A DNA stretch of 64,000 nt, taken from NCBI GenBank assembly GCA_963789955.1, contig CAWBMV010000022.1, positions 288,001 through 352,000 on the forward strand. The letters are read 5' to 3'. The stretch comes from an uncultured Candidatus Rokubacteria bacterium. GTDB taxonomy: Bacteria; Methylomirabilota; Methylomirabilia; Rokubacteriales; CSP1-6. Shown piece after piece: positions 16,642 to 58,174 of the stretch. The notes beneath the pieces are model-generated. The model was not told the origin of the DNA and did not search any database. It saw only the letters and a program-made list of their open reading frames with translations. The number at the start of each line of letters is the position of its first letter. Position 1 is the stretch's first letter. The position numbers and the translations under genes are program-made.

Positions 16642-17325
16642 ATGAGCGTCCAGCAACGGCGTTGCCGAGGCGAGGAAATCGGCGTGGTCGAGAACGGCCA
16701 CGGCCGCGCCTGGCCGGCGGGCGAGGTGGTGATCGCCGCCGTGACCCGACCGGCCGGGAAATACTACGTTCTGGCCATCCCGCAGGCCGCCCTGGGGGGC
16801 GAGGCGCTCACGGCTTTTCTGGCGCAGGTCGCGCCCTTTGGGTGCCCCGTGCCCGGATCGCTGATCCGGGCCTATAGCCTGCCGGACGCGCCATTCCCGT
16901 CGATTCTCCTGAAGGAGCACGAGGTGGCCCCCGACGGTATCGCGGATGCGTATCGCCGGTTCCTCGCCGTGGCCCGCCGGCCCTGGATAGCCGCCCTCGA
17001 CCAGACAGGTCCGGGCCTCTGTCCCGTGCTGGCCTGGGAAGCAGGGACCACACGGCGCCTCGTCGGTCCTGAGGAATTGGCCGGGGTGGCGGCCGAAGCG
17101 GGTCTCACGCAGACGGGCGTTGCCGATGGCTATCTCGGCCGCGGCTTGCTGCTGCTCGCCCATCCCGAGCTCGCGGAGGCCTGGCAGACACTGATGTCGC
17201 TCGGCGGCCCCACCAAGATCCGAAAGATCACCGGCCGCGAGTTCCCGGTCTGGGTCGACCTCCCGGCCCACCAGCCATCGCTTCTGAGCAGTCCGATCCT
17301 GACAAACGTCGAGAGTCTGCTCTAG
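16642..17325 (+). CDS. Hypothetical protein divergent from the selenoprotein gene
   Basis: 227-aa ORF with GGAG RBS filling the gap between two minus-strand genes; no family recognised. Confidence 0.6.
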   Translation: MSVQQRRCRGEEIGVVENGHGRAWPAGEVVIAAVTRPAGKYYVLAIPQAALGGEALTAFLAQVAPFGCPVPGSLIRAYSLPDAPFPSILLKEHEVAPDGIADAYRRFLAVARRPWIAALDQTGPGLCPVLAWEAGTTRRLVGPEELAGVAAEAGLTQTGVADGYLGRGLLLLAHPELAEAWQTLMSLGGPTKIRKITGREFPVWVDLPAHQPSLLSSPILTNVESLL

Positions 17326-40218: not shown

Positions 40219-40680
40219 TCAGCGCTCGCGCTGCTTGACGACCGAACGTAGAATCGTCGTCGCCAGAGCCTGCGCCACCATCGCCGCCACCGCGACCGCG
40301 GTTCTCGACCCCAGGCCGCCCGTCGTCGGCGCCAGCCGGTCGGGATCTTGGGCGACGCGCTCGAACGCCTGCCCGAATCGGCGAGCCTTCTCCCGGAGCT
40401 CGGCGCCACGTCCGAGCAACGAGCTTCGGCGCCGCGCGCGGACCCGAGCCAATGCGACCGGCGCGGTGACGGCGACCGCGACGACCAGCACGCCGAGCGC
40501 GATCTCGCGCGCGTGCAGCCGGAGCTGGCGCCGCCAGTCGGTCATGTTGTGCCGCCGGCGGTCGAGCTCCATGACGAGCGCGTCGAGCCGCCGCCGGACG
40601 TCGGTAATCTCGTCGCCGAGCTGGCGCACGCGGCCGTTGACCGCGGCGTCGTCGACTACGCGAGTCGTTCCTTGGCCCAT
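40219..40680 (-). CDS. DUF3618/YqjK-like small membrane-anchored protein
   Basis: Coiled N-terminus (RQLGDEITDVRRRLDALVMELDRRRH) then TM segment; directly follows the holin-family gene. Confidence 0.6.
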   Translation of the reverse strand: MGQGTTRVVDDAAVNGRVRQLGDEITDVRRRLDALVMELDRRRHNMTDWRRQLRLHAREIALGVLVVAVAVTAPVALARVRARRRSSLLGRGAELREKARRFGQAFERVAQDPDRLAPTTGGLGSRTAVAVAAMVAQALATTILRSVVKQRER

Positions 40681-42101
40681 TGCACTTCCTCCTTCACGAT
40701 CCTTCTGGTAACGGCCAGCGGCGCGCTCACGCGGCGCTGCCATCCAACGAGCGCCAGGACGGCGCCGACCGCGAGCAACAGCCCGGCGACGGCGAGAGCG
40801 GCCAGCCAGCCCGGCATCCAGACGGTCAGCGCGAACACCGCCGAGACCAGGAGCATGTTGACGGCGAATACCGCCACGACGCCGGCGGTGATGAGCAGCG
40901 CCACCATGCTGAGCTCGGCTTTGATGTCGGCCCTGATCTCGGCCCGGGCGAGCTCGACCTCCTTGGTGACCAGCAGCGAGACCGTCTCGATCAGGCGCGT
41001 CAGGAGCTGGCGCGTCGAGAGCGACTGGGTCTCGGGATCGATGGGAGTGTGGAACGTCGTTGATGCCATCACATTCTCCTTCGGCAAGATCACCTCGAGA
41101 ATCTGTCGGTGGCCGCCCAGCGCACGGCCGAGCTGCAGCACCTGCCGATAGATCACCTGCCAGTCGTCGAACGACAGTGGTCGCCGCGCCATCTCGATCG
41201 CGATCTCGTCGAGGCGGACCAGGAGCGGCGACGCGTTCTCGTGCGCGGACGGATTGAGTCGATAGCCCGACCACACTCGCTGGACCTGCCGCTCGATCTC
41301 CTGCGCGTCGGACGACACGGTCTGGAACATGTCGGGGTGCCCGGTGAGGGCCTCGACCGCGAGCGCGTGAGCCTGCGCCGCGACGCCGCTCGGTCCTCGG
41401 AGCAGCAGTGCGTTCGGGTATAGCACAGCTTCGAGCGCGCCGCTTCGGAAGTAGGCCGACTGGTCGGCGACGTAGCCGGTGAACGCGCCCTGTCCGAGAC
41501 GCTGCAGGATCATCGACGGCATCGCGGCCCACCATGGAGGCTCAACCGCCACCATCTTGATGCCGTGGCGATCGAGGGTGTCGAGTACGACCTTGGCCGC
41601 AACCGGGTACGACTCAACGGTCGTCACCAGCGGGACGTACGTGTCGTGGCGTCCGCGCAGCATCGACACGACGCGGAGGGTCGGCACCGTGACCAGCATG
41701 ATCAGGAACGCGACAGAGAGCCCCGCGGTGATCGGCAATCCACGGAGAATGCTCTTGGCGATGCCCTCGCGACGTCCCGACGGAGCATGTACGCCGACCG
41801 TCAGGCCGACCGCGATCGGGACGAGCGCGGCGACGGCGAGCCAGATCTTGCGGACCAGGCCGGGCGGGACCGAGCTCGACAGCGGTACGAAGGCGAAGAC
41901 CCAGAGGGCGGCCTTCGGCGCCACGACGCCGAGCAGCAGGACCGGCCAGGCCGCGGCGGCGGCCATCATGCCCCACAGGAAGAGCTTGCGGTTGCCGGTC
42001 ACGCGGCCGAACAGGCTCACCACCGCCCAGTCGAGCAGCGCCGAGAGGATCCGCCCGACGGTTTGCGTGATGAGACTGACGATCGCCTGGATCAGCGCCA
42101 T
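40656..42101 (-). CDS. Membrane protein fused to C-terminal YqjE/phage-holin-3_6-family domain
   Basis: N-terminal TM region of unknown family; C-terminal STRQLLTRLIETVSLLVTKEVELARAE + 2 TM + PL..TR...KEEVQWAKE; internal AAGGAG RBS before ATG 41069. Confidence 0.75.
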   Translation of the reverse strand: MALIQAIVSLITQTVGRILSALLDWAVVSLFGRVTGNRKLFLWGMMAAAAAWPVLLLGVVAPKAALWVFAFVPLSSSVPPGLVRKIWLAVAALVPIAVGLTVGVHAPSGRREGIAKSILRGLPITAGLSVAFLIMLVTVPTLRVVSMLRGRHDTYVPLVTTVESYPVAAKVVLDTLDRHGIKMVAVEPPWWAAMPSMILQRLGQGAFTGYVADQSAYFRSGALEAVLYPNALLLRGPSGVAAQAHALAVEALTGHPDMFQTVSSDAQEIERQVQRVWSGYRLNPSAHENASPLLVRLDEIAIEMARRPLSFDDWQVIYRQVLQLGRALGGHRQILEVILPKENVMASTTFHTPIDPETQSLSTRQLLTRLIETVSLLVTKEVELARAEIRADIKAELSMVALLITAGVVAVFAVNMLLVSAVFALTVWMPGWLAALAVAGLLLAVGAVLALVGWQRRVSAPLAVTRRIVKEEVQWAKERLA

Positions 42102-42723: not shown

Positions 42724-44541
42724 TCACTGGTCGCCGCGAGATACCCGCGCCGCGGCGTACCACTGGAAACCGATTTGTCGTCCGCCGCGAGCGCCCGCTC
42801 CGGCCTCGGCGTCAAGCGGAGTAGATCGCTCCGCGCCTGGCCCAGGCTGGTCACCACGTCGTCGGCGCCGGCCGCGCAGAGATCGGCGCGAAGCTGGGCC
42901 GAGCTGCTGCGGCCCCCAGCACCCGACGATGATCGTGGTCTCGGGACAGACGGCGCGCAGGCGCTTCACGAGATGGCGGGCGCGGCCGCTCTCTTCCAGC
43001 GAGCTCACGAAGATCGACGCGGGATTCATCGCCACGACCGCCGCGATCGTTTCCGAGATGAGCGCGCCGGCCGGCGCGATCTGCACCGCGTAGCCGTCCG
43101 CTTCGAGGAGCCGGTTCAGGGTCGTGAGCACCACGCAGTCGGCTTCGTCGCGAACCGGGCAGCCGGCGACGATCACCCGCTCGGGGGCCTCCTGGGTCGA
43201 GGTGTCTCGCACAGGCGGCGGCCCGTCGGTGATGGCGCGGTCGAGCACTGCGCGCGTCGTCTCGATCACGTGCGTGTACTCGGCGTCCGGTAGTTGCCCC
43301 ACCTCGTGGTCGTGACGGGCGCGGGCGAGCGCGGGGACCAGGATCCGGTCATAGGCGGCGAGGTCCGAGCCGGTCTTCGCCGCCTCGTGCACGAGCTCGG
43401 CCGCTTCCTGGTCGTCACCGGCCAGGACGCGCTGATAGAAGATGACGTGCTGGTCGAGACCGGGATCGTCTTCGACGAGGATTCCGATGAACTCGAGACC
43501 TTTGACCGTGTGCGAGAACACGACCAGCCACACGGTGAGCGGGATCGCGAGAGCCAGTCCGATCGGTCCCCAGAGCCACGACCAGAACGCGACCGAGATC
43601 AGGAGGGCGATCGACGCGACGCCCGCGCTCTTCGCGAAGAACAAGGGCTCGAGGACGAACGCGATGATGCTCTCCGAGACGGCGAAGAGCCCGACGATCA
43701 GCAGCGGCTTCACCCAGCCGTCGAAGACCGCCAGGCTCACCAGAATCGGTAGCCCGGCGGCCACCCACGCGCCCACGTATGGAATGAAGCGCAGCAATGC
43801 GGCCAGGGCGCCCCACGTCAGCGCGAACGGAAGCTCCAGCGTGAAGAGGCCGATCGCGATCGTGACGCCGAAGCTCGCGTTGAGCGCCGTCTGGGTGAGC
43901 AGATAGCGGCTGATGCGCTCTCCCGCCTCGTCGAGGGCGCGGGTGGTCTCGGCCAGCCGGTCGGAGCCGAAGAGCCGGACGATCCGCGCGCGCAGCTCGC
44001 GCTGTTGGATGAGCATGAAGGCCATCAGCACGAAGACGAAGACGGCGCCGCCGACCGGCTCGAGGATCTTCGCAATCTGCCAGAGCGAATTGGGCGAGGA
44101 CACGATCACCGGCAGCGGCTTCGTGGCCTGTGGATTCGTTCGCTCGATCTGCGCCATCACGTCGTGCGCCGTTTCCTCCACTTTCCGGAGCGCGCTGCCC
44201 CGGCCCATCCGCTGGACGTCGTTGATCTTGCGCGCGATGGTGGCCCGGTATTGCGGCAGGTCATCGGCCAGCACGGTGACCTGGCTGAAGAGCGCCCAGC
44301 CGAGCCCGACGGCCAGGAGGACCGTCAAGGCGAGGACGACGACGACGGCCGGAACCCGATGCAGTCCGGTTCGACGCAGGAGCGCGACCAACGGGCTCAA
44401 GAGGAATGTCAACAGAATGGCCAGCGCGATCGGAATGAACACGACGCGCGCCCAGTACAGACAGGCGATGGCGACGATCACGGCGCCGAGAACGACGAGG
44501 CGCGATGTCCGGGATGCGTCGACCGGCTTGAAGGGGCTCAC
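42724..44541 (-). CDS. AI-2E family transporter with C-terminal soluble domain, frameshift near 3' end
   Basis: IPIALAILLTFLLSP, ISRYLLTQ, LRFIPYVG, FWSWLWGPIGLALAIPLTV, FYQRVLAGD. Confidence 0.88.
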   Translation of the reverse strand: MSPFKPVDASRTSRLVVLGAVIVAIACLYWARVVFIPIALAILLTFLLSPLVALLRRTGLHRVPAVVVVLALTVLLAVGLGWALFSQVTVLADDLPQYRATIARKINDVQRMGRGSALRKVEETAHDVMAQIERTNPQATKPLPVIVSSPNSLWQIAKILEPVGGAVFVFVLMAFMLIQQRELRARIVRLFGSDRLAETTRALDEAGERISRYLLTQTALNASFGVTIAIGLFTLELPFALTWGALAALLRFIPYVGAWVAAGLPILVSLAVFDGWVKPLLIVGLFAVSESIIAFVLEPLFFAKSAGVASIALLISVAFWSWLWGPIGLALAIPLTVWLVVFSHTVKGLEFIGILVEDDPGLDQHVIFYQRVLAGDDQEAAELVHEAAKTGSDLAAYDRILVPALARARHDHEVGQLPDAEYTHVIETTRAVLDRAITDGPPPVRDTSTQEAPERVIVAGCPVRDEADCVVLTTLNRLLEADGYAVQIAPAGALISETIAAVVAMNPASIFVSSLEESGRARHLVKRLRAVCPETTIIVGCWGPQQLGPASRRSLRGRRRRRGDQPGPGAERSTPLDAEAGAGARGGRQIGFQWYAAARVSRGDQ

Positions 44542-44563: not shown

Positions 44564-44908
44564 TCACTGCACGCGAACCGCGAGGTTGTTCACGACGCCG
44601 GCGACATGCTTCACGCTGCGGGCGATCTGCTCCGCGCGGGTGCGCATCTCGGCGTCCTCGACCGTGCCCGTGAGATAGACGGTGCGCCGGTCGGTATCGA
44701 CGCCGATCTTCGTCAGAGTGGACATCTTCTCCGCCGCGAGCTTGGCCTTGACCTCACTGGTGATCGTGGCGTCGTCGACGTTTTCACCCGCGGTCTTGCC
44801 GGTCGTCGACGTACAGGCCGTGAGGACGACCGCGAGGAGGGCCACGAGCGTCATCGTGATCGTTGGCGTGAAGACATTCGTTGGCGTGAAGACATTGAGT
44901 CGGCGCAT
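44564..44908 (-). CDS. BON (OsmY-like) domain lipoprotein
   Basis: LTAC lipobox, VDDATITSEVKAKL, IGVDTDRRTVYLTGTV, V..VAGVVNNL. Confidence 0.9.
   Translation of the reverse strand: MRRLNVFTPTNVFTPTITMTLVALLAVVLTACTSTTGKTAGENVDDATITSEVKAKLAAEKMSTLTKIGVDTDRRTVYLTGTVEDAEMRTRAEQIARSVKHVAGVVNNLAVRVQ
44861..44896. repeat. 18-bp perfect tandem duplication in BON signal peptide (NVFTPT x2)
   Basis: CGTTGGCGTGAAGACATT repeated twice. Confidence 0.85.
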
Positions 44909-44971: not shown

Positions 44972-44986
44972 GCAATCCGTGTGCCA
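44972..44986 (-). promoter_or_regulatory. sigma54 promoter of the BON/AI-2E/holin/PBP operon
   Basis: TGGCAC-ACGGA-TTGC, exact GG-N10-GC spacing, 63 bp upstream of ATG 44908. Confidence 0.8.
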
Positions 44987-45080
44987 GCACTGACACACGC
45001 TCGAAGTGGCGTCACCACGCGGAAACAATGCGAAAACGATGAAGGCTCGGTTGGGGAGTCTCGAACGGACCGCCGAGGCG

Positions 45081-45105
45081 CGCAAACCTACCAGGTAATT
45101 CTTAC
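45081..45105. promoter_or_regulatory. Tandem GTAA-N3-TTAC enhancer-like site
   Basis: CGCAAACCTAC-CAG-GTAATTCTTAC. Confidence 0.6.
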
Positions 45106-45170
45106 GAGGCGGGGGCCGGGCGACCGCGGCGGCTTCCGGGAGCTGCCGCCGCGTGGTCGCCGGCACGAGA

Positions 45171-45341
45171 TCAGCGACCCTTCGCGTGGCCCTTGGCTTT
45201 GTGCTGCTTCATCACGGTGCGCGCCGCGACTTCCTTGGCGCGCCGGCCGTAGCGGCCGGACTTCTGGGCGGACTCCTTGATGTGCTCGTACTGGCGCCGC
45301 TCCTTCGAGCCGACGCCCTGCAAACGTCTCCCTCGCGGCAT
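45171..45341 (-). CDS. Small basic ChaB-like stress protein (56 aa, not in ORF track)
   Basis: GAGGAGG RBS; MPRGRRLQGVGSKERRQYEHIKESAQKSGRYGRRAKEVAARTVMKQHKAKGHAKGR*. Confidence 0.75.
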   Translation of the reverse strand: MPRGRRLQGVGSKERRQYEHIKESAQKSGRYGRRAKEVAARTVMKQHKAKGHAKGR

Positions 45342-45380
45342 GTGCCCTCCTCTCGATGAAGCTGGATTGAAGCCGGTTGA

Positions 45381-45611
45381 TCAGTGCGTCGACGACTGGC
45401 GGATCGCGTCCTGCCCCGACTTGGACGCGGCGTTGACCTGGTCCTTCGTCGCGTCCAGCGCGTCCTCCGCCTTCTTGCCGACCGTGCGAATCATGTTGAC
45501 CGCGCTTCGGCGAACGCCCTTGGTCCGGCTTTCAGCGTATTCGCGGATCTCCTCGCCCCAGTACCAGACGGCGAAACCGCCGACGAGCGCTCCGAAAATG
45601 AATCGAAACAT
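45381..45611 (-). CDS. YtxH-like general stress protein
   Basis: AAAGGAGG RBS; N-terminal FIFGALVGGFAVWYW anchor followed by hydrophilic helical tail. Confidence 0.7.
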   Translation of the reverse strand: MFRFIFGALVGGFAVWYWGEEIREYAESRTKGVRRSAVNMIRTVGKKAEDALDATKDQVNAASKSGQDAIRQSSTH

Positions 45612-45671
45612 CGCCGTCCTCCTTTCGTGGTGTGAGGCCTCGTCGACCGAGGCGCCACGTCTGTGCGACCA

Positions 45672-45686
45672 GCAAGAGAAGTGCCA
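45672..45686 (-). promoter_or_regulatory. sigma54 promoter of the YtxH-like gene
   Basis: TGGCAC-TTCTC-TTGC, 60 bp upstream of ATG 45611. Confidence 0.8.
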
Positions 45687-45759
45687 CGGGTGACGCGTAT
45701 CGACGAGACGGAAATCCTGGGCGTGAACGGGCCTGCCTGAGCGCGCCCGGCCGCGAGCG

Positions 45760-45784
45760 TCGATTCTTACTCGGTAACTCTTAC
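45760..45784. promoter_or_regulatory. Tandem GTAA-N3-TTAC enhancer-like site
   Basis: TCGATTCTTAC-TCG-GTAACTCTTAC. Confidence 0.65.
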
Positions 45785-45792
45785 CGTCCCGG

Positions 45793-47433
45793 TCATTTCT
45801 CCGCGTGCGGTTCCCCGCGGGCGGCGCGCGCCGCTTCGAGGTCGAACCCGGGCAGGATCGCCTTGAAGAAGGCGTTCTGAACCAGCCGAACGATCGCGGC
45901 CACGGTACCGACCTTGGGGTTGTCGATCCGGCCGAGCACCTCGGCCTTGGTGGCGACCTCCTCGCGCGGGCGATTCTTGAGGAGCTTCGCGACGCCGCCC
46001 ACGAGGCGCTCGTACATCTTGCGCGCCATCGTCTTGGACTGGTCCTGCCTCTTGTCGTAGACCTTCAGATCCTTGAACAAGCGGCTTGAGGTAGCCGGTG
46101 ATGACCCCGTCCTTCGCGTCGAGCTCGGAATAGAGAAAGAAGCGCCCCGCGGAGGTGTCGAAGCGGCCGTAGGCGCGGAAGAGGTCGTTCAAGGTGGTGA
46201 CGTCGACCTCCTCGACGCGCACCCCGATGCCGAAGCTCGGGCCGGCCCTGTCGGTTCTGAAGGTCGCGTCCGCCGTCGCGGCTCCGGAGCCCATGAAGGC
46301 GCCCTTGAGCTTGGCGACGGCGGTACCCTCGCTCTGCTGATTGCTGAGATTCGTCAACGTGCCGTCGGTGTCGGCGAGGAAGACGCGGTAGGACGGCGAC
46401 ACCGCTTTGTTGACGAAGCCGACCGTGCTGCGCGTGAGCCTGAGCTCGCCGATCTGCACGAGGAGGTCCGGCGCGTTGCTCGCCTGCTTGGCGGCGTCGG
46501 CGGCCTTGCCGCGCACCGCCTTCTCCGCGCCCGCGGTCGGCGCTGTGTGCACGTAGTCCACGTGGATCCCGTCGATCGCGGCGCGCGTCAGCCGTACCGT
46601 CTTGGTCTCCTGGGCGTATTCGACGTGTCCGTTCGCGGAGAGCACGCCTTTGTCCACCCAAAGGTTGTAGCGGTTCGTGATCGGCTTGAAGTAGTCGAGC
46701 TGAATGTCCGCGATGTCGATGTCGCCGCGAAACGTCGGATTCGGCTCCGCCAAGAAGTTGACCTGGCCGTCGGCTGACACGCGACCGGATTCGAACACAA
46801 CCGCCGAGAACCGCACGTCAGACGGGTAGGGACGCTTCACCGGGCGGTTGCGGATGTTGGTGGCGATCAGCTCGAGATCGCGAATGCGCAGCGGCTTGAA
46901 GGGGCCCTCGTCGACGTACGTCACGTCGCCCGCCGCGAATCTCGAAGTGGTTGATCCTGAGCGGGTAGATCGCCTGCAGCGCGTCTTGCCAGCCGCGCTC
47001 CTTCACCGGGGTCGGATCGGCGATCTCCTTGCGCGCCTGCGGCAGGTTCAGATAGACGGTCGGCTTGATCAGCTCCACGTCCCCGACGAGCTTTCCCGAG
47101 AGCAGCGCCCGCCAGTGGACGCTCGCGCTCAGACGCTCGATCCGCATGATCGCCGGGTCTGGGTGGGCGTCCTGGGTGACCACGACCTCGTAGAGATCGA
47201 GCGCGAACCCGAGCGGATGGAAATCGAGCTGGCCGATCCGTGCGGTGTACCCCTTGAGCGAGTGGTTCATCTTCGCTTCGGTGTACCGGCGCAGCGGCTC
47301 GTCGATCAGAGACGCGATCGTGTAGGCGAGGACCAGCAGGATCGCGATCGGGCACCCCGATTGCGATCCAGTGCCGGCGCGCGCCTCGAAGTCCGGCGCT
47401 CGTGATCGTCGAGAGCCTCGATTCCCTGTACAT
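45793..47433 (-). CDS. DUF748 (AsmA-like) envelope protein, three frameshifts
   Basis: N-terminal TM, LIDEPLRRYTEAKMN.SLKGY, WQDALQAIYPLRIN, LNDLFRAYGRFD, GYLKPL/FKDLKVYD, LVQNAFFKAILPGF. Confidence 0.8.
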
Positions 47434-47459
47434 GGCTTCCTGCCTCGCCGAGCAATTGA

Positions 47460-47474
47460 GCAAGAGATGTGCCC
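47460..47474 (-). promoter_or_regulatory. sigma54 promoter of the DUF748 gene
   Basis: GGGCAC-ATCTC-TTGC, 26 bp upstream of ATG 47433. Confidence 0.72.
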
Positions 47475-47518
47475 GGCGCGAGCCATGGAAAAAGCGCGAG
47501 GCGAGAAGAACCGGTCCG

Positions 47519-47529
47519 GTAGAAATTAC
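47519..47529. promoter_or_regulatory. Single GTAA-N3-TTAC-like site between divergent sigma54 promoters
   Basis: GTAGAAATTAC (reverse strand CAG-GTAATTTCTAC, compare CAG-GTAATTCTTAC at 45092). Confidence 0.5.
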
Positions 47530-47631
47530 CTGCCCCGCCGTCGAGCCTGACCTCGAGCACACGGCGCCAAGATTTCGCAACTCCGTGTCGCGTCGCAAGT
47601 TTGTCACCGCGCCGGCGGTCTCGACGCGCCT

Positions 47632-47646
47632 CGGCACGCGCTTTGC
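47632..47646 (+). promoter_or_regulatory. sigma54 promoter upstream of small ORF and DUF3185 gene
   Basis: CGGCAC-GCGCT-TTGC. Confidence 0.72.
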
Positions 47647-47727
47647 CTGAGCACAAGACCGTGTGTATGGTCCGGCCCTCGCGAAGCACCGCACGCGAGA
47701 TGATTCGGCCGGAGGAGAGGCCCCACG

Positions 47728-47808
47728 GTGAAGGGCGGCGAGCAGAAGGACCGGATAGAGGACCGCGAGGACGCGAATCGTCACTGGCGTCAGCAGTCGC
47801 GTCACTGA
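47728..47808 (+). CDS. Putative 26-aa hydrophilic small protein
   Basis: GGAGGAGAGG RBS then GTG: MKGGEQKDRIEDREDANRHWRQQSRH*; lies just downstream of a sigma54 promoter. Confidence 0.4.
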   Translation: MKGGEQKDRIEDREDANRHWRQQSRH

Positions 47809-47969
47809 GTTTCTCCCAACCAGCCGGAAAAACACAGCGTCCGGACGTCGCGACTCCGGGCGCATTGCATAGCGAGCTGGAGACCCCGACCCATGGCCGG
47901 GGTCTCCAGCTCGACGTTCGAAACCACCGTTCCAGCGAGACCAGCAAGGGGGGTGGAGACGTGCAAGCG

Positions 47970-48179
47970 ATGAAGATTCTCGCGATCGTCCTGATCATCG
48001 TCGGTGTGGTCGCGCTCGCCTACGAGGGGATTACCTACACGAAACGCGAAAAGGTGCTCGAGGTCGGACCCATCACGGCCACCAAGGAAACCAAGCAGAC
48101 CATTCCGCTGCCGCCGGTTCTCGGTGGGGCGGCGCTCGTCTGTGGCGTTGTCTTACTGATCGCCGCGGCGCGCCCGTAG
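47970..48179 (+). CDS. DUF3185-like small two-TM membrane protein
   Basis: MKILAIVLIIVGVVALAYEGITYTKREKVLEVGPI...TIPLPPVLGGAALVCGVVLL. Confidence 0.78.
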   Translation: MKILAIVLIIVGVVALAYEGITYTKREKVLEVGPITATKETKQTIPLPPVLGGAALVCGVVLLIAAARP

Positions 48180-48190
48180 GGCGCGAAGCG

Positions 48191-48234
48191 ACCCGTCGAG
48201 AGCCGGCGGGACACCCGTCGAGAGCCGGCGGGAC
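48191..48234. repeat. 22-bp perfect tandem duplication
   Basis: ACCCGTCGAGAGCCGGCGGGAC twice with no spacer. Confidence 0.85.
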
Positions 48235-48265
48235 AAACGGCGGCGCGCGGCGCGCGCCGCCGTTT
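48235..48265. terminator. Bidirectional intrinsic terminator between convergent genes
   Basis: AAACGGCGGCGCGC-GGC-GCGCGCCGCCGTTT, 14-bp perfect stem. Confidence 0.7.
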
Positions 48266-48287
48266 CTCATCCGCGTCCAGTCGAGGC

Positions 48288-48767
48288 TCAGGCGATCCGA
48301 CGTTGCGAGCTGGACCTGGTCTGGCGGGACGATTCCTTCGGCGGGTTCACGCCCATGCCGTGCACGAACACCAGCTCACCGCCGAACCAACCCGCCACAC
48401 CGAGCGCCGCCAGGCCGACAATCGACAAGCCGACCGGCAGAACGCCGATCGTGTCGATCCATCTCAGCCAGAAGCTCAGGCCGAAGATCGTGAGGGCGAT
48501 GAGATTGGCGACCATGTGGGTGACTCCGACCTGCCGCGCGCGCGCGTCCGTGATCGACAGGAAGTCGATGAACCCGGGAATCGCCGCGAGTAGCGCGCCG
48601 ACGATTCCGCCCCCGAGGGTGTAGAAGGCGACGTCCTTCCAGATCGCCCTGCCCCATCCGAGCTGAAAGATGAGGTCCGCGACGACGGAGAACACCCACA
48701 GACCGATGGGAAGGGCGACGAGCATGGGATGTACCGGATGCCGGCCAACACTGGCTGGGGTCGACAT
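48288..48767 (-). CDS. DUF2231 membrane protein
   Basis: HPVHPMLVALPIGL, LAAIPGFIDF, GVTHMVAN, GWFGGELVFVHGMGV; AAAGGAG RBS. Confidence 0.88.
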   Translation of the reverse strand: MSTPASVGRHPVHPMLVALPIGLWVFSVVADLIFQLGWGRAIWKDVAFYTLGGGIVGALLAAIPGFIDFLSITDARARQVGVTHMVANLIALTIFGLSFWLRWIDTIGVLPVGLSIVGLAALGVAGWFGGELVFVHGMGVNPPKESSRQTRSSSQRRIA

Positions 48768-48807
48768 GGAGGACTCCTTTCTCGAACGAGCTTGACCACC
48801 GCGAGTT

Positions 48808-48822
48808 GCAAAGCCGTTGCCG
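48808..48822 (-). promoter_or_regulatory. sigma54 promoter of the DUF2231 gene
   Basis: CGGCAA-CGGCT-TTGCA, 40 bp upstream of ATG 48767. Confidence 0.65.
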
Positions 48823-48864
48823 AGTGGGATTGCCGGGAATAACCGACTGAAAACCTCGCGCCGA

Positions 48865-48889
48865 GTCGTTTTTACCGGGTAAGAACGGG
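48865..48889. promoter_or_regulatory. Tandem GTAA-N3-TTAC enhancer-like site
   Basis: GTCGTTTTTAC-CGG-GTAAGAACGGG. Confidence 0.55.
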
Positions 48890-48903
48890 GGGACTCGCAC
48901 CGG

Positions 48904-51900
48904 TCAGCCGAGCCAGACCCGTACCTGATGCGTGGCGCCGTCGTCGACCAGGGGCAGGGCGGCTTGCCCCGCGGCGGCCGGGACGCCGTCGATCTCCACG
49001 CGTGACACCCCACGGGTGACGCCGTGCGGGTTCTCGACCTGAACCTGGTAGCGCGAGGCGTGGTAGCGGAACGTGATCGAAAAGCCGCTCCACGTCCGCG
49101 GGATGCACGGGTCGATGAAGAGCGACGCGCCGCGGATCCGAAAGCCCAGGAGCCACTCGATTCCCGCGCGATACATCCAGCCGGCCGAGCCGGTGTACCA
49201 GGTCCAGCCGCCGCGTCCCGAATGCGGCGCCTCGGCGTAGACGTCACCCGCGACGACGTACGGCTCGACGCGATAGCGGTAGAGCCCGGCGCGCGTGCTC
49301 GTGTGGTTGATCGGGTTCAACAGCGCGAAGAGCTCGCCGGCGCGATCGCCGTCGCCGAGCGCGGCGAAGGCCATGATCGCCCAGATCGCCCCGTGCGTGT
49401 ACTGACCGCCGTTCTCCCTGATGCCCGGCGGATAGCCCTTGATGTAGCCGGGATCCCGGGAGCCGCGCACGAACGGTGGCGTGAAGAGCAGGACGATCGC
49501 CTGCTCGCGGTGGACCAGGTACTCCTCGACCGCGTTCATCGCGCGGGCGGCGCGGTGAGGGTCGGCGGCCTTCGAGAGCACGGCCCATGATTGGGCGATC
49601 GAGTCGATGCGGCACTCCGCGTTCTCGGCCGAGCCCAGCGGCGCGCCGTCGTCGAAGTATGCGCGGCGGTACCAGTCGCCGTCCCAGCCGGCGGCCTCGA
49701 GCGCGCGGCCGAGCGCCTGCAGGTGCTCGCGCCACACGCGTGCCCGTTGCGCCTCGCCCCGCGCTTCGGCGATCGGCGCCCACTCGGCGAGCGTGGCGTG
49801 AAGGAACCAGCCGAGCCAGACGCTCTCGCCGCGGCCCTTCGCGCCCACTCGATTCATGCCGTCGTTCCAGTCGCCCGTGCCCATGAGCGGCAGGCCGTGG
49901 CTCCCGACCGCCAGGCTCCGGTCGATCGCGCGCGCGCAGTGCTCGAAGAGCGACGCGTGCTGCGTCGACACGGTGGGCTCGAAGTAGGCCTCGAGGCTGT
50001 CGTCGGCCAGCACCGGACCTTCGATGAACGGGATCTGCTCGTCGAGGACCGTCGTGTCCCCGGTGACCGTCAGGTAGTGCGCCGTCGCAAAGGCGAGCCA
50101 GACCCGATCGTCGGAGATGCGTGTGCGCACGCCGCGCCCCGAGGGCGGATGCCACCAGTGCTGCACGTCGCCCTCGGGAAACTGGCGCGCCGCCGCGCGG
50201 CACAGGTGCGCGCGAGTGACGTCACGGGCCGCGGCGGTCAGGGCCATGACGTCCTGGAGCTGATCGCGAAAGCCGTACGCGCCGCTCGCCTGATAGAAGC
50301 CCGCGCGCGCCCACACCCGGCAGGCGAGGGCCTGATAGAGCAGCCAGCGATTGAGCATCAGATCGAACGATCGGTCGGGGGTCTTCACCAGGACCGCCGC
50401 CAGCAGGTCGTCCCATCGGGTCATGACGGTCCGGAGCACCGCATCGAGGTCGGCGGATCGATATCGCTGGACCATCGCGCGCGCCTCGTCGGCCGACGCC
50501 GTCTGCCCGAGGAAGACATCGACCTCCGCGCTGGCGCCCGCGGTGAGCATGACCGTGACCTGCATGGTGCCGCACGGATCCAGGCCCCCGCCGAGCCGGC
50601 CCGAGAGCCGCTCGCCGCGCTCGAGCGCATCCGGATGGTCGAGCGAGCCATTGCGGCCGAGGACCTCGGCGCGATCGCCGGTCCACGCGGTCTGGCTCCC
50701 CGAAAGATCGAGGAACGCGATGCGACCGGCGAAGTCGACGGTCCACGCGTTTCGCGCGAAGAGCGCGCCGGTCGCCTCGTCCAGCTCGGTCACGATATGG
50801 GGCGCGGTGGTCGCGCGCGCGGCGCCCAGCACCCATTCGACGTACGCGGTGACGGTGAGCCGCCGCGAGCGTCGCGAATGGTTGGTGATCTTCAGGCGCG
50901 AGATCTTCACCGGATCGTCGAGCGGCACGTACTGGGTGAGCTCCAGGGCGATGCCGTGTGAATCGTGGGCGAAGCGGCTGTAGCCGTGCCCGTGATGACA
51001 CTGGTACGACCACGCATCCTCGCGGATCGGCAGCAGGGTGGGCGTCCAGAGGCGGCCGCTTTCCTCGTCGCGCACGTACAGCACTTCGCCCGGCGGGTCG
51101 CTGACCGGGTCGTTCGACCACGGCGTGAGCTGATTCTCGCGGCTGTTGAGCGCCCACGTGTACCCGGCGCCCGACTCCGACACCTGGAAGCCGAGCTGCT
51201 CGTTCGCGATCACGTTGATCCACGGCGACGGCGTCCAGTGCCCTTCGTCGAGCACGATCGAGTACTCGCGGCCGTCCTCGACGAAGCCGCCGAGCTCGTT
51301 GTCGAACTCGCGGCGCGGCCGCGGCATCGGCGGCTCGGAGGCCGCCTCCCGGTCGGGGGACGGGCGCCGCTCGCGGCGCCTCGGCGCCGCCGCCGCGCGC
51401 TCGGCCCGGCCGACCTGCTCGGCCAGGGTGCCCAGGCGACTCAACAAGATTACGCGGGCCGCCGCCGCCAGACAGTCGCGCTCGCCGGCCGACAGGAGAT
51501 CGCCGCGCAGAACCACGATCGAGCCCTCCGGCGTCGCGCCGAGGGTCGGTCGCCCGGCGCGCACGAGCCCCTCGAGTGCGGCCTGCAGGTCTTGCAGATA
51601 GGACGGCGGCTTCTCGTTCAGGATCACGAGATCGACCGCGAGCCCCTTCATGCGCCAGTACTCGTGCGCGCGCAGGAGCTGCCGGACGATCTCGCGGTCC
51701 TCGATCTCGTCGATCCGGACCAGCACGATCGGCAGATCTCCCGAGATTCGATGCGCCCACAGGGCCGCGGGCCCGAGGGTGTTGCGCGCGAGGACCGCCG
51801 CCGGTGCGCGCAGCCGCGAATCGGTGTAGAGGATCCGGTTGGCGATCTGCTGGAAGAGGTGGGCTTCTTCCGGCGTGATGCTCAGGTGATGGAGCTGGAC

Positions 51901-54900
51901 CTGTGCCTGGGTCCACGACAGGGTCGTGATGCGCTCGAACCTCGCCGGATCGCGATACTTGTCGGCCATGCCGAGCACGGCGGCTCGTGTGTCGGCGAGC
52001 ATCGTGGAGAATACGACGCGGCCGCTCTGCCCGGGCGCGAGCCGCAGCCGGCGCCTCAGGCTGAAGATCGGGTCGAGCACAAAGCCCGTCGTGTTGGAGA
52101 GTGGCCGGCCTTCGATCATCGACATCGGCGTGCGGATGCCGCGGCCGCGTCCCAGGAAGCGCCCGCGCTCCGTCTCGTACTGCGAGCCGCCGGTGCTGGT
52201 GCCCTCGACGGAGACGACGTGGGCGGCCCAGACGCGCGGCTCGTCCGGTGAGCGGGGCCGACGGGTGGCCAGGAGCGTATCGAGCTCGGCGACGGCCTCG
52301 GTCTGAACGAAGAGATTGGAGAACGCGGGATGGGCCGCGTCGTCGCGCGGCGGCGCCAGCACGATCTCGGCGTACGAAGTCACCTCGATCTCGCGCGCCT
52401 CGCTGCCGAGATTCGTCAGGGTCACGCGCCGGATCTCGGCGTCGTCCTCCGGCGAGACCAGCACCTCGAGCCGCGTCAGCAGATGGTCGTCGCGCCGCTG
52501 GATCTCGGCGCGGTCCTCCAGGAAGGTCACCTCGTAGCTGTCGGGCTCGACCCCCGAGGGCTGGAGGCCGGCCGACCAGACGGCGCCGCTTCGCGTGTCG
52601 CGCAGGAAGATGAACGTCCCCCAGGCGTCGCGCGTCGTGTCCTCGCGCCAGCGAGTCACCGCGAGGCCGCCGCAGTGACTGTAGCCGCCGCCCGCCGTGG
52701 TCATCATCACGAAGTAGCGGCCGTTGGAGAGCAAGTGCGTGTGCGGCACCGGATCGGACACGGACGTGAACCGCCGCGAGGTCGGCGCCTCGAGCGCGCG
52801 CGTGACCTCGTGCGCGGGCGCTTCCTTCGCGCGCGGGCGCATCACCGGCACGTCGCGCGGCGCGCGCTCCTGCAAGATCAGCTCGGTGGCCTGCACCATC
52901 GGCTGAGCGTGGAATCGCTCGCGCATGCGGCCGTCGAGCAGGACGTTGGCGAGGGCCACGACCGTCATGCCCTGGTGGTGAGCCATGTAGGTGTGGATCA
53001 CGGCGACGTCCGCGCCCTCGGGCAGGCGCTCGCGCGTGTAGTCGAGCGCCTCGTAGAAGCCGTACGGCCCGAGACCGCCGGCGCGCGCGATCTCGCCGAA
53101 GTTGCGGGCCGCCGCCGAGGGATAGACCATCGCGGCCAGCGCCGTCGCGTAGGGCGCGATGACCAGATCGTCCCCGAGCCCGCGCTCGAGCCCGAGCCCG
53201 GGCACGCCGAAGCTCGAGTACTGGTAGGTGAGGTCGAGGTCGCGCACGTTGTACGCGGATTCCGAGATGCCCCAGGGCACGCCGCGAGCCTTCGCGTAGG
53301 AGATCTGGCGCTGAACGGCCAGGCGGGACGTCTGCTCGAGCAGGCTGCCGTCGGGCTCCCGCATGACGAGCCCGGGCATCAAATACTCGAACATCGAGCC
53401 CGACCACGAGACCAGCGCGATGCCCGACTCGACCGGGGTCATCGGCCGCGCGAGCCGGAACCAGTGGACGGCCGACACGTCACCCCGGGCGATCGCGACG
53501 AAGCTCGTCAGCCGGGCCTCAGATGCCAGAAGATCGTAGCGACTCTCGTCGAGTGATCCGTCGGTGACGCGATAGCCGATCGCGAAGAGCTGGCGGGGTT
53601 CGTCGAACAGGAACGTGAAGTCCATCGCATCGAAGAGCTCGCCGGCCGTGTGCGCCGCGTTCTCCAGGCTCTTCATGAGCGCTTCGGCCGCACGCGCCGA
53701 GTCCTCGAGCGAGGCGATCACGGCCGTCGCGCGAGTCCGATCGAGCGAGCCGCCCGCCTTGTCGTCCGAGCTCTCCACCCATTCGGCGAGCTCGCGCGCC
53801 GCCGCTCGGGCCAGCTCCGGCAGATGGCCGAGCAGCGGCGGCCCGTCGAGCAGACGCGCGACGACGGTCCCGTTCTGGCGCTCGGGCGGGAGAGAGCGGC
53901 GGAGATCGTCGAGCCCTTCGATCCACGGCACGATCGCGTCGAGATCGCGCCGGTGGGAGGCGATCGTCGCCTGAGCGACGTCCGCCCACACGACGGCCTC
54001 GGCGCCCGTGTCCTCGGGAAGCGCCTTCGCGCGCTCGCCGAGCCCCCGGACGGCAGTCGCCATCTCGACGAGGCGGTTCGGCCACGCGTGCGAGCGTCGG
54101 AGGCTCCTGTCCCAGCGCGGCGCGGATCTCATCGACGGAGGTGCGAGCGTCGGCCGGAAGCGCGTCACGCAGCAGGACAAGCGCCGCGTCGATGCCACGC
54201 TGGACCTCGGCTCCGACGATCGGACGCTGGACGCGCTCGCGCGCGGCGACCGCGAGGACGCTGAGATGCCCGGCGAGATTGCCGCTGTCGACCGAGGACA
54301 CGTACCGCGGCTCGAGGGGCTTGAGGTTCTTCGTGTCGTACCAGTTGTACAGGTGGCCGCGATAGCGCTCGAGATCGCCGATCGTCGCCAGGGTGGCCCC
54401 GATCCGATCGATCGCGTCGAGCGTGCCGATGAAACCGAGGTCCCGCGCCGCCACCGCCGAGAGGAGATAGACGCCCATGTTGGTCGGCGAGGTGCGGTGG
54501 GCGACGACCGGCCGCGGATCGTCCTGAAAATTATCCGGCGGCAGCCAGTTGTCTTCGGCGGTCACGAACGTCTCGAAGAAGCGCCAGCTCCGTCGCGCCG
54601 CCGTCAGGATGATCTGCCGCTCGTCGGCGGTCAGCTGCTCGGGGGGCCGCGTGACCATCGGACGGCTGATCAAGCGGGCCACCGCGGGCGAGAGGGCCCA
54701 GAGGACGGCGAACGCCGCGGCGACCGCGCGCGCGTCTCCCGAGCTCGACGCGGCGATCACCACCGCGACGAGCGCCAGCACGAGGGCGCCCCACATCTTC
54801 GCGTACGTCCGGGCGAGATCGAGCCGGGCGCTCGACTTCACCTGCGCGGCGGTGACCCATTCGAGCATCCGCCGGCGCGTGACGACGAGCCGGAGCAAGG

Positions 54901-57557
54901 TGCGCCCGACCGCATCGGCCATGAGCCAGGCCTGGTGCGCGAGCAAGGTGAGCGCGAGCGCGATCTGCGCCGCGGCGAGCGCCACGGTCGTGCCGATGCC
55001 GCGCAGGTAGGCGCGCTTGGATCCGCCGGGCCGTCGCGGGATGAGATCGGTCGACACCGGGACCAGTGCCGGCACCGCGAGACAGAGCAGCACCAGCTTG
55101 GTCCACACCATCGGCGCGCCGGCCGGCAGGGTCCAGCCGAGCACGAGCGTGAGATAGGCGCCGGGAGCCGACAGCGTGCGCCTCAGATTGTCGAGCATCT
55201 TCCAGCGGCCGATCGTGGGAATCCGCGCCCGCGAGGCGCCGATCCCGGCCGCGCCGCGAATCAGCCACGGCAGCAGCTGCCAGTCGCCGCGGGCCCACCG
55301 ATGCTGGCGCGCCGCCGCGACCTCGTAGCGCGCCGGGAAATCCTCGAAGAGCTCGATGTCGGTGACCAGCGCCGCCCGCGCGAAGAGGCTCTCGAAGAGA
55401 TCGTGGCTGAGGAGCGTGTTCTCCGGCACCCGCCCCTCGAGCGCGCGCTCGAACGCGTCGACGTCGTAGATGCCTTTGCCGGTGTACGAGCCCTCGGCGA
55501 AGAGATCCTGGTACACGTCCGACACCGCGGCGGCGTACGGATCGACGCCGGCCGGACCCGAGAACACTTGCCGAAAGAACGAGGCTTCTCGCTCGGTGGG
55601 CAAGGTGGGCGCGATGCGCGGCTGCAGGATCCCGTACCCCTCGACGACACGCCCTTCGCGCGGCTCGAGCCGAGGCCGGTTCAGCGGATGCGCGAGCGTG
55701 CCGATCAGGCGCGAGGCCGCGCCGCGGGGCAGCTGCGTGTCGGCGTCGAGCGTGATCACGAAGCGAATCGCCGCCGGCACCTCGAGCGCGTCGCCGACGA
55801 ACGAGGTGTCGGTCGCGCCGCGCAGCAGGCGGTTGAGCTCGTGGAGCTTGCCGCGCTTGCGCTCCCAGCCCATCCAGCGGCCCTCGCTCTCGCTCCAGAG
55901 GCGCCGGCGGTGGAACAGATAGAAGCGTGCTTCACCGCCGGTGGCAGGACCGTGACGCCGGTTGAGCTCGGCGATGCCGGCCCGTGCGGCGGCCAGCAGC
56001 GGCGCGTCGTCGGGCGCGTGCTCCTGGGCCGAATCCGTCCAGTCCGACAGGAGCGCAAAGCGCAGCTCGCCGTCGTCGTTGGCGAGATAGTGGACGCCCA
56101 GCCGCGCGATCTGCTCGGCGATCTGCGCCGGCCCGGTGAGGAGCGTCGGCACGACCACGAGCGTCTTCAGCTCGAGCGGCACGCCGTCGGCCAGCTCGAG
56201 CCGCGGCAGGGCGCGGGGCGGCAGCAGCTCGACGATCGCGCGATTGACGAGCGCCGTCGCCGCGTCCGAGGCGGGCAGCGCCGCGAGCGCGGCGAGGACG
56301 ATCAGGAAGAGCAGGCTCACGCCGAGGGCATGGGTGAACAAGACCGGCAAACAGAGCAGAAAGCCGGTGACGATCGCGATCGAGCCGAGATAGCTCCACG
56401 TCGCCGAGGCCATGTAGGCGCGCGTGAGCCGCTGACGCAGCGACACCCGGTAGCCGAGCGCGTGCTCGAGGTTGGGACGCCCCTTCGAGATCAAGAAGTA
56501 GCCGAGATCCTCGGTGCGCCGCTCGCGGCTGCCCGCCAGATTCAAGGTCTGACGGGCCACGTCGAGCTCCGCGCGGTCCGACCCGCGGGCCAGATCCTCG
56601 ACGGCGTGGCGATAGCGGTCGCGGGTGGCGAAGTCCATCGCGCCGAACTCGCTCTCGGCGCGGAAGAGCCGATCGACCAGGCTGACCTTCTCGACGAAGT
56701 CGCGCCAGTCGAAGGTGGTCATGATGCGGAGGCTCGTGATCACGTTGCGCACGGTCACGTTCGCGGCCGCCTGCCGCTGGTGCTCCGCGCGGACGAGGTC
56801 GTGCGCGGACGTGCCGCGGGCGGCGAGGCGCTCGTCGAGCCAGCGCGTCGCCGGCGTGGTGACCGGGTCCTGATCGCGCAGGCGCTGGGAGAGCCGCACG
56901 GCGAACGTCGTGTTCAACGCCGCGTCGTCGATCGCGCGAAACGCCTGCGGATCGGCCGGGACATCCGTCTGACCCAGCAGGAGATTCGCGAGCTGGTCGG
57001 CCTCGAGCCGCGCCTCGCGGCGTTCCACGATCTCCACGGCCAGCCGTCGCAGGTTCTCGATCAGCGCGAGCCGGAGCGCGATCGGCACCGCCCAGAGCTC
57101 GCTGATGCGCAGCGCGTCCGTGCGCTGGAAGGCGAGCACGAAGCGCTGGAGCGTGACAGCGTCGAAGCGACTGTCCGTGTGGGCGACGTACGTCCACGCG
57201 AGCTCGAGCACGCGCGGCGCGCCCGGCGAGCGGCCCTTCGTCGAGGGTCGGCAGCTGGCGATAGAAGCCCCGCGGCAAGTCGGTGCGGATCTCGTTGAGC
57301 ACTTCCTCGACGATGTGGAAGTTGTCGACCAGCCACTCGGCGGCCGGGGTCGTCGCTCGCTCGTCGTCGATGACGGCGGCCAGGGTTTGGTAGCAGCGGA
57401 GCAGGACGCGTCCGCTTTCTCGCGTGCGCGACAGCAAGCCCAGCTCCGGGCGGCGGCCGGGTGAGACCCGGTGCCGTGCGATCGTCTCGGCTAGCTCCTC
57501 GAGCCGCTCGACGCTGAGGATCTCATCGCGAATAGGCTCTGCCCCCGAGAGCGTCAT
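48904..57557 (-). CDS. ndvB: Cyclic beta-1,2-glucan synthase (Cgs/NdvB/ChvB; GT84 + cyclisation domain + GH94 phosphorylase), frameshifts near 57225 and 54090
   Basis: AAEWLVDNF, WMGWERKRGKL, ITLDADT, YTGKGIYD, LLSHDLFE, RQHRWARGDWQ, RTSPTNMG, YDLLASEARL, SWSGSMFEYLMP, YQASGAYGFRDQLQD, GDWNDGMN, RENGGQYTH, GGWTWYTGSA. Confidence 0.93.
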
Positions 57558-57558
57558 A

Positions 57559-57582
57559 TAGATGTGCGCCTATATGTGCGCC
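57559..57582. repeat. Imperfect 12-bp tandem repeat next to the cgs start codon
   Basis: TAGATGTGCGCC TATATGTGCGCC. Confidence 0.6.
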
Positions 57583-57614
57583 GGGGTCCGCCTGTTGCGA
57601 GCTCGACACATGCT

Positions 57615-57639
57615 GTAAGATTTGCTTGGTAGAGATTGC
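57615..57639. promoter_or_regulatory. Tandem GTAA-N3-TTAC enhancer-like site
   Basis: GTAAGATTTGC-TTG-GTAGAGATTGC. Confidence 0.6.
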
Positions 57640-57727
57640 TCGATCGTCCCGGCCGGCTACCCGCGCGAAGGGTCACGGACGTCGACATTTCGCGTACATC
57701 GACATGAACAGCTTGCGCACGACACCT

Positions 57728-57742
57728 TGGCATTTCAATTGC
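57728..57742 (+). promoter_or_regulatory. sigma54 promoter of small membrane protein gene
   Basis: TGGCAT-TTCAA-TTGC, 27 bp upstream of ATG 57770 (GGAGG RBS). Confidence 0.75.
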
Positions 57743-57769
57743 GATGTCGTGGTCGTGGAGGATTGGCGG

Positions 57770-58016
57770 ATGAGAGTCGCAATCGGTCTGATCGGGCTCA
57801 GCCTCATCGGCGGGGTGGTACCGACCGGGTTTGCTGGGTATCACGCACGCAGCGCAGGTCCTGGCGGGTACCGCCGGGGCGCTGCTCGCGCTGTTGCTCT
57901 TCTGCCTGGGCGGTGCCGCCGCCGCTCGGCGAGCCGCTCCCACCGTCGTGCGGGTCACGCCGCGACGGCCGCACGGCTCCATCGCGTCGTCCCAATCCGT
58001 TCCTCGCAGTATTTGA
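57770..58016 (+). CDS. Small two-TM membrane protein, frameshift near 57825
   Basis: MRVAIGLIGLSLIGGVVP... continues in another frame as LLGITHAAQVLAGTAGALLALLLFCLGG...VPRSI*. Confidence 0.5.
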
Positions 58017-58052
58017 AGGTCCACGTCTCGACCCGCGCCGCGGCCAAAAATT

Positions 58053-58067
58053 GCAACGCCCATGCCG
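58053..58067 (-). promoter_or_regulatory. sigma54 promoter pointing toward cgs
   Basis: CGGCAT-GGGCG-TTGCA. Confidence 0.65.
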
Positions 58068-58149
58068 TGCCCGCGCGGGAAGCTCCCCGCTGAATTCGGA
58101 ACTTTGACGCCCCGCCTGCATCAAGAACTGTCATCCGACGAGCGACTCT

Positions 58150-58174
58150 GTAACAACTACCGTGTAAGACCGTC
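58150..58174. promoter_or_regulatory. Tandem GTAA-N3-TTAC enhancer-like site
   Basis: GTAACAACTAC-CGT-GTAAGACCGTC. Confidence 0.55.

Follow-up and report, generated by a model that had tools for sequence, protein, structure and literature searches.

General-stress genes of bacteria are normally wired to RpoS, SigB or EcfG, and the CsbD, BON/OsmY, YqjE, Ku, cardiolipin synthase and DUF4142 families are RpoS, SigB or PhyR-NepR-EcfG general stress targets elsewhere. These regulators are sigma70-family factors under proteolysis or partner switching, whereas the system described here is predicted to use a phosphorylated, ATP-driven activator at sigma54 promoters. It was recognised in a 64-kb stretch of DNA (contig C22:288001-352000, hereafter the window) of the assembly G000 of an uncultured Candidatus Rokubacteria bacterium (Methylomirabilota), in which sigma54-type -24/-12 promoter motifs share an upstream palindrome, GTAA-N3-TTAC. 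The candidate activator, P0001, is encoded on another contig of the same assembly.

Among described systems, QseE/QseG/QseF (GlrK/YfhG/GlrR; PMC6075780, PMC3045617) is alike, as far as the accessible portions of these papers go, in uniting a membrane kinase, a lipoprotein and an activator of receiver-AAA-helix-turn-helix (Rec-AAA-HTH) type in one operon, with a different gene order, and in having upstream sites ~100 bp from a sigma54 promoter, a link to the envelope and possibly a small RNA among its targets. According to the same portions, GlrR has few known targets (PMC3045617) and its operon is not autoregulated. P0001 differs in its site, in its ~30 predicted targets, in a predicted self-activation and in falling outside the GlrR group in a protein tree; it was rejected as GlrR because neither the GlrR site, TGTC-N10-GACA (PMC3045617, accessible text), nor orthology was found. 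The PEP-CTERM-box regulator PrsR offers a second parallel, since the available part of PMC1569441 describes an enhancer-plus-sigma54 regulon that has kinase and lipoprotein partners and was deduced from sequence and phylogenetic profile. The box, given there as a 17-nt motif ending in TTTACA, resembles the TTACA end of our wider consensus RTGTAA-N3-TTACAY, a comparison confined to that end. P0001 scores 413.3 bits with TIGR02915 against a cut-off of 502.6 and was not accepted as PrsR, and there is no PEP-CTERM protein among the annotated targets. Domain order and presumed mechanism are also shared with AtoC, ZraR, NtrC and NtrX, the best NCBIfam matches of P0001; assignment to any of them was rejected on scores below the respective cut-offs (462 against 714, 406 against 760, 413 against 559 and 384 against 600).

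A further comparison is with Ralstonia solanacearum, where RSp1667 and RSp1668 are enhancer-binding proteins without an assigned function and rpoN2 is without an observed role, as stated in the accessible part of PMC4676750; the title of PMC4371752 is to the same effect for rpoN2. The gene order beside rpoN2 matches that of a homologue of P0001 (locus tag inferred) and the recognition helix is nearly the same, whereas the pair shares 47% identity with P0001, is divergent and has no kinase-lipoprotein unit behind it. The GTAA-N3-TTAC site is not mentioned in the available portions of these two papers. Searches of open-access text (logos, supplements, RegPrecise and subscription papers lay outside their reach) returned no description of the motif or regulon, 0 matches to the motif string and no paper on Rokubacteria regulons, and the accessible part of PMC3162934 makes no mention of such a regulon. 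What we describe is a real and apparently undescribed regulon of known parts, working like any NtrC-type regulon.

In G000, about 30 sigma54-type promoter motifs have the conserved palindrome GTAA-N3-TTAC 30–145 bp upstream. This assembly of 6.77 Mb and 68% GC (87% complete, 5% contamination) encodes rpoN (PF04552, E 3e-60, contig C17) and ~30 enhancer-binding proteins. Within the window, GGCA-N6-TTGC is seen 10 times (expected 1.64; none of 100 shuffles has as many), including copies at 15676, 16653 and 47351 that had gone unmentioned in the initial annotation, and GTAANNNTTAC at ≤1 mismatch is seen five times (45095, 45774, 47519, 57615 and 58150) against 1.25 expected, a number reached by 1 of 100 shuffles. 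All five copies sit 45–109 bp upstream of a promoter motif named below; a sixth element (48865) carries two mismatches to GTAANNNTTAC and an exact inner TTAC-N3-GTAA of the pair, 43 bp from its promoter. It is the placement of the site that gives the strong signal, the site alone being only moderately unusual within the window. Across the genome, a site with ≤1 mismatch lies 25–150 bp upstream of 21 of 160 strict promoter motifs, downstream of 1 of 160 and upstream of 17 of 5000 random positions, and a GGCA-N7-TGC motif follows 11 of the 15 exact sites. Three promoter patterns together give 32 site-promoter pairs. A position weight matrix (PWM) scan, circular because the matrix was trained on the same sites and used only to size the regulon, finds 31 intergenic promoters scoring ≥12 upstream against 3 downstream with contig C4 included, and 26 without it. 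Contig C4 largely duplicates C3:48-93 kb at 83–97% identity (a co-binned relative or a duplication), and the csbD and BON sites on these duplicates are to be counted once.

Conservation follows the same pairing. In relatives of the genus, the site and the -24/-12 motif stand out as conserved islands amid diverged DNA, and 79 of 121 genomes of the phylum contain the exact site-plus-promoter pattern, with 282 occurrences in all; a reversed control gives 20. The initial annotation had proposed a sigma54 regulon in which promoters share an upstream sequence and general-stress-type genes are frequent, and had named rpoN and the co-occurrence of site and promoter above background as checks; the presence of rpoN and a pairing that is genome-wide and conserved bear this out. 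Its 14-bp tandem period holds for Rokubacteriales and fails elsewhere. In G000, 14 of 32 sites have a second site at 14 bp, compared with 20–24 bp in other loci of the phylum, and in 118 metagenome matches the second site is mostly 19–23 bp off. The latter scan covered 4 of 64 parts and gave 119 loci, of which one was dropped; it was made without a control, mixes real Rokubacteria-like matches with probable chance matches in low-GC DNA, and serves for spacing and examples only. The 14-bp tandem is a local architecture and a feature of Rokubacteriales; as a universal period it is ruled out by the wider spacing in other lineages. Inner half-sites of the G000 pairs match at 85% and outer ones at 72%. 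At csbD loci of two other genera (L450-L467; g6 and g10), an inner YTAC-N3-GTAR at 79–93 bp is best kept and the outer halves are weak.

First or second genes behind site-bearing promoters outside the window include csbD (both copies, on the C3/C4 duplicates; csbD had been named among the stress genes to check), a double-BON gene, DUF3309, a cardiolipin-synthase-like PLD gene, DUF4142 followed by ku, CHRD, PRC-barrel, M48 peptidase, YHS, a multi-HAMP kinase, a proteasome ATPase and a weak YflT match, together with many small exported proteins without a family. Three of the eight BON genes of G000 are targets. Of the other stress genes that the initial annotation had suggested checking, ku belongs to the DUF4142-ku target unit and ligD was found to have no promoter of its own with a site in G000. 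Around the three alpha-amylase-family loci of this genome, the search brought up no promoter that bears the site. The proteasome ATPase gene (L043, C20:67829-69631; TIGR03689 above cut-off) lies downstream of a site and a sigma54 motif. The kinase gene L035 (C22:258116, minus strand), encoding multi-HAMP, GAF and HisKA domains, is a strong predicted target, and a second sensor may therefore feed back on the system.

The initial annotation had called for one enhancer-binding protein without naming it, and a strong candidate is now at hand on contig C6. P0001 (C6:364661-366022), an NtrC-type Rec-AAA-HTH regulator by domain search, carries GSFTGA in place of GAFTGA in its loop, and its nearest relatives are mostly Ca. 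Rokubacteria or Methylomirabilota records. It is probably the protein that reads GTAA-N3-TTAC and would thereby activate stress-protection and envelope genes in G000. The operon runs from a small exported protein through P0001 and a histidine kinase to a lipoprotein-like protein (lipobox read by eye); a receiver-only gene comes next, with a second site and promoter in front of it. The kinase has the architecture sCache-HAMP-PAS-HisKA-HATPase, as taken from an intact relative. A site pair and a sigma54 motif precede the operon itself and, of the 34 tblastn matches to bacterial enhancer-binding proteins (bEBPs) in G000, P0001 is the only one whose own operon has the site in front. In 12 of the 14 closest orthologous loci (one of the 14 without upstream DNA) this site is 103–106 bp from the promoter, and at 18 of 52 loci (Acidobacteriota in nearly every case) site plus promoter lie ≤350 bp upstream of the orthologue. 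No characterised close relative of P0001 was found by a protein search with the HTH region or by a search of the PDB.

The distribution of site and protein points the same way. Among the 121 phylum genomes, the site-plus-promoter pattern is present in 72 of 81 with an orthologue of P0001 and in 7 of 40 without one, against 11 of 81 and 6 of 40 for the reversed control, although related genomes are not independent and part of the signal comes from the activator's own locus. At least two pattern matches are found in 53 of the 81, and counting by uniform genera gives 14 of 17 against 2 of 16. The orthologue cut-off (E ≤1e-150) was set from a gap in the scores and takes in paralogues of the same clade. 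In a motif-blind test on csbD (best 30 of 59 matches, 48 genomes), a sigma54 motif lies within 330 bp in 22 of 25 loci of orthologue-bearing genomes, 11 of these with the site or its inner core, compared with one of five in genomes without an orthologue; random windows give 72 of 20000. The inner-core rule was added after a first pass in which 5 of 30 passed the original rule.

Beyond Methylomirabilota, Burkholderiaceae encode a divergent bEBP pair 45–49% identical to P0001, and these homologues have nearly the same recognition helix as the P0001 family (ISLKTLYNRL versus ISLKTLHNKL). In a quick tree of 78 proteins the Burkholderiaceae homologues group with P0001 (Shimodaira–Hasegawa-like approximate likelihood ratio test 97), and the clade stands apart from AtoC, ZraR, GlrR and the other G000 bEBPs. 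The homologues adjoin rpoN2 or lie in stress islands with BON, SDR, GlgE-domain, DUF1328, YihY and Mn-catalase genes. Across six Burkholderiaceae regions, the site is upstream of 9 of 145 promoter-like motifs and downstream of 2, and on four replicons from a plasmid collection the exact site-plus-promoter pattern occurs 2, 2, 0 and 0 times (control 0). The exact matches, on megaplasmids of Cupriavidus and Ralstonia, are all within ~11 kb of the bEBP pair; in Ralstonia, where the pair is beside rpoN2, the exact site and promoter are 7 kb away. Among the genes downstream of the pattern in this family are those for BON, SDR, a GlgE-domain protein and a glycosyltransferase.

In the mechanism that we propose, a membrane kinase, probably tuned by the lipoprotein, would sense envelope or physical stress and would phosphorylate the receiver domain of P0001, as expected from bEBP biology. 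P0001 dimers would occupy the paired palindromes, whose spacing is 14 bp in Rokubacteriales and 19–23 bp elsewhere, and the AAA+ ring would assemble, loop to the sigma54 polymerase and open the promoter. Positive feedback would come from the site in front of the C6 operon. A signal from the envelope is suggested by the periplasmic sensor domain and the lipoprotein, by analogy with QseEGF as presented in the accessible part of PMC6075780.

Several observations weigh against P0001 as reader and against a stress role, in addition to the shared ancestry and the own-locus contribution already mentioned. Some Rokubacteriales have paralogues with a changed helix, ISTKTLHNML, beside csbD, and the reader is therefore ambiguous there. 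The P0001 clade in the quick tree includes two Gemmatimonadales proteins without the helix described above. Helical phasing between site and promoter is not significant in G000 (n = 26, p 0.12–0.16), and the phasing signal outside it stems from related genomes. Five of the eight BON genes of G000 lack a site directly upstream. The 151 Acidobacteriota genomes give no genome-wide excess (68 matches, 69 in the control), and the regulon there is therefore local or the site has drifted; on the four Burkholderiaceae replicons, two have no exact match and the excess at one mismatch is small (11 versus 5). In the NC10-type families, csbD is rare (1 of 15 genomes in family f5, 0 of 11 in f6) and the targets are mostly exported proteins and REC-PilZ units, so that the stress role is not the fixed output of the family. 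An RpoS-like group-2 sigma gene (L355, C30:100193-101209), frameshifted and directly behind an M23/nlpD-like gene recognised by eye, has no site upstream. It scores 231 bits on the frameshifted gene, with relatives up to 324, against a cut-off of 378.7. Given this RpoS-like sigma behind the M23 gene, the P0001 system is likely one of two stress layers and probably works beside the RpoS-like sigma, not in its place. The initial annotation had the lineage running its general stress response through sigma54; the stress-gene targets stand, and the claim for the whole response is probably overstated, an nlpD-rpoS-like locus also being present. A second, shorter RpoD-like sigma gene, also frameshifted, lies at C6:201 kb (L354).

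A rival reading accepts regulon and activator and takes their output to be an envelope, surface or developmental programme, to which soil Rokubacteria have locally added the classic stress genes, while the general stress switch is still the RpoS-like sigma. We consider this possible, though somewhat unlikely. The periplasmic sCache domain of the C6 kinase and its lipoprotein-like neighbour fit it, as do the NC10-type targets (exported proteins, glycine-zipper lipoproteins, REC-PilZ units) and the fact that a second, short RpoS-like sigma is common in Rokubacteriales; the presence of csbD, BON, cardiolipin-synthase-like, DUF3309 and DUF4142-ku genes among the G000 targets, the csbD test with its 22 of 25 among the best-matching loci, and the stress islands that surround the Burkholderiaceae homologues argue against it. 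It is distinctly improbable that one of the other enhancer-binding proteins (~30 in the genome) reads the site, or that a DNA-bending co-factor serving sigma54 promoters generally does so. One bEBP, L020 (C22:174 kb), lies 3 kb from a site cluster, but 20 of the 121 genomes have an orthologue of it; among the 79 motif-positive genomes, 18 have one, compared with 72 that have one of P0001, a distribution on which L020 was rejected as the activator; a general co-factor would have to be squared with the site being borne by just 21 of 160 strict promoter motifs. Least probable by far is that the palindrome is the operator of a sigma70-type regulator, with incidental -24/-12 matches. Four of the 15 exact G000 sites, it is true, have no GGCA-N7-TGC motif within 200 bp, but the enrichment is one-sided, upstream of promoter motifs, site and motif are conserved jointly, and both co-occur with a sigma54 activator.

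The reading of P0001 as activator of a sigma54 regulon provides, purely from sequence, a regulator with its likely DNA site and ~30 targets for uncultured soil bacteria. If true, the wiring of general-stress genes to sigma54 and a phosphorylated activator would be a different design. A wider reading, which we offer only tentatively and regard as rather doubtful, is that a kinase-controlled sigma54 activator family working through one enhancer, from Methylomirabilota to Burkholderiaceae, would be a fourth way of running the bacterial general stress response and the missing job of the RpoN2-associated pair. Helix and site also occur in culturable Cupriavidus and beside Ralstonia rpoN2, which makes the prediction directly testable and gives it a bearing on an open question.

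Within the window, the seven -24/-12 motifs are where the initial annotation had put them, the six GTAA-N3-TTAC elements likewise, and its quoted 14-bp pairs agree with the sequence; the upstream placement of the sites stands and the distances are 43–109 bp, where 45–120 bp had been given. The motif at 44972..44985 (minus strand), kept in 4 of 4 relatives, lies ahead of a BON-domain (OsmY-like) lipoprotein gene (44564..44908, minus; PF04972, E 8e-17), whose initial label is upheld, and the genes that follow: an AI-2E family transporter (42724..44481, minus; PF01594), an LLM oxidoreductase and a protein with a C-terminal YqjE/holin-X domain (40656..42101, minus; PF07332), as had also been proposed. 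Transporter and YqjE-domain protein are likely co-transcribed with the BON gene. The paired site at 45081..45105 (exact copy 45095-45105) is 95/109 bp upstream of this promoter, and the pair aligns in 4 of 4 relatives. The next motif, 45672..45685 (minus), is kept in 8 of 8 relatives, with a paired site at 45760..45784 (exact copy 45774-45784) 74/88 bp upstream that has ≤2 mismatches in 8 of 8 relatives and is exact in 5. Two further targets here are the genes for a 76-aa N-anchored membrane protein (45381..45611, minus), for which the YtxH label is a lead only (Atlas 0.88, no Pfam match), and a 56-aa basic protein (45171..45341, minus) without any Pfam family, whose ChaB label found no backing in these searches.

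The six sequencing runs found in a search for RNA evidence contain just 6–7% of the sequence words. Four of them, aligned at 85% likeness, proved to be assemblies from relatives whose contigs are mostly <95% alike. A contig over the 76-aa gene ends at 45613-45624, between the start codon and the predicted transcription start at ~45660, in three RNA runs belonging to two studies; these ends were not counted as support for the start, since contigs cannot show starts and no DNA run spans the place.

Divergent promoters at 47460..47473 (minus; DUF748 gene at 45793..47436, minus, by Pfam search; kept in 5 of 5 relatives) and 47633..47646 (plus; motif search, with conservation in relatives known from part of the alignment) share a single site at 47519..47529, 45 and 103 bp away and exact in 5 of 5 relatives. 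Also among the targets are a 69-aa two-helix membrane protein with weak DUF matches only, encoded at 47970..48179 (plus), and a DUF2231 membrane protein (PF09990) at 48288..48767 (minus). The motif at 48808..48821 (minus) is kept in 4 of 4 relatives, and the degenerate pair at 48865..48889, with its exact inner TTAC-N3-GTAA 43 bp upstream, in 3 of 4. On the far side of an ndvB-like GH94 glucan gene (48904-57557, minus), the paired site at 57615..57639 lies 89/103 bp upstream of the motif at 57729..57742 (plus), which precedes a ~78-aa membrane protein gene starting at 57769 (plus) and frameshifted in this assembly; both pair and motif are found in 5 of 5 relatives. The weakest-conserved unit is that of the motif at 58053..58066 (minus), which has no conserved downstream open reading frame and is present in 3 of 4 relatives covering the position; its paired site (58150..58174) is 83 bp upstream, with a copy in 2 of 4 relatives that is there only ~25–30 bp from the motif. 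This motif faces the 57729 promoter in convergent orientation, and transcription from it would pass through the 57769 gene in antisense, in the direction of the ndvB-like gene; it could give an antisense RNA or a long leader. Elsewhere in the window, a sigma54 motif at 16653-16666 (minus) with a weak site (16757) ~90 bp upstream precedes two genes, a small SelT/W/H-like one and a glyoxalase-like one.

Frameshifts split the ndvB-like gene, the DUF748 gene, the C6 kinase gene and the two sigma genes, and they are probably assembly errors, because a relative has the C6 kinase intact. A conserved two-hairpin non-coding element (47835..47915, plus), present in 8 genomes of the genus, lies within the predicted transcript of the 47633 promoter, downstream of it. 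It has no Rfam match, and its 2-mismatch matches outside the genus look unrelated. Across the 8 genomes, 5 of its 27 base pairs show two-sided changes, and the element is a candidate small RNA or leader.

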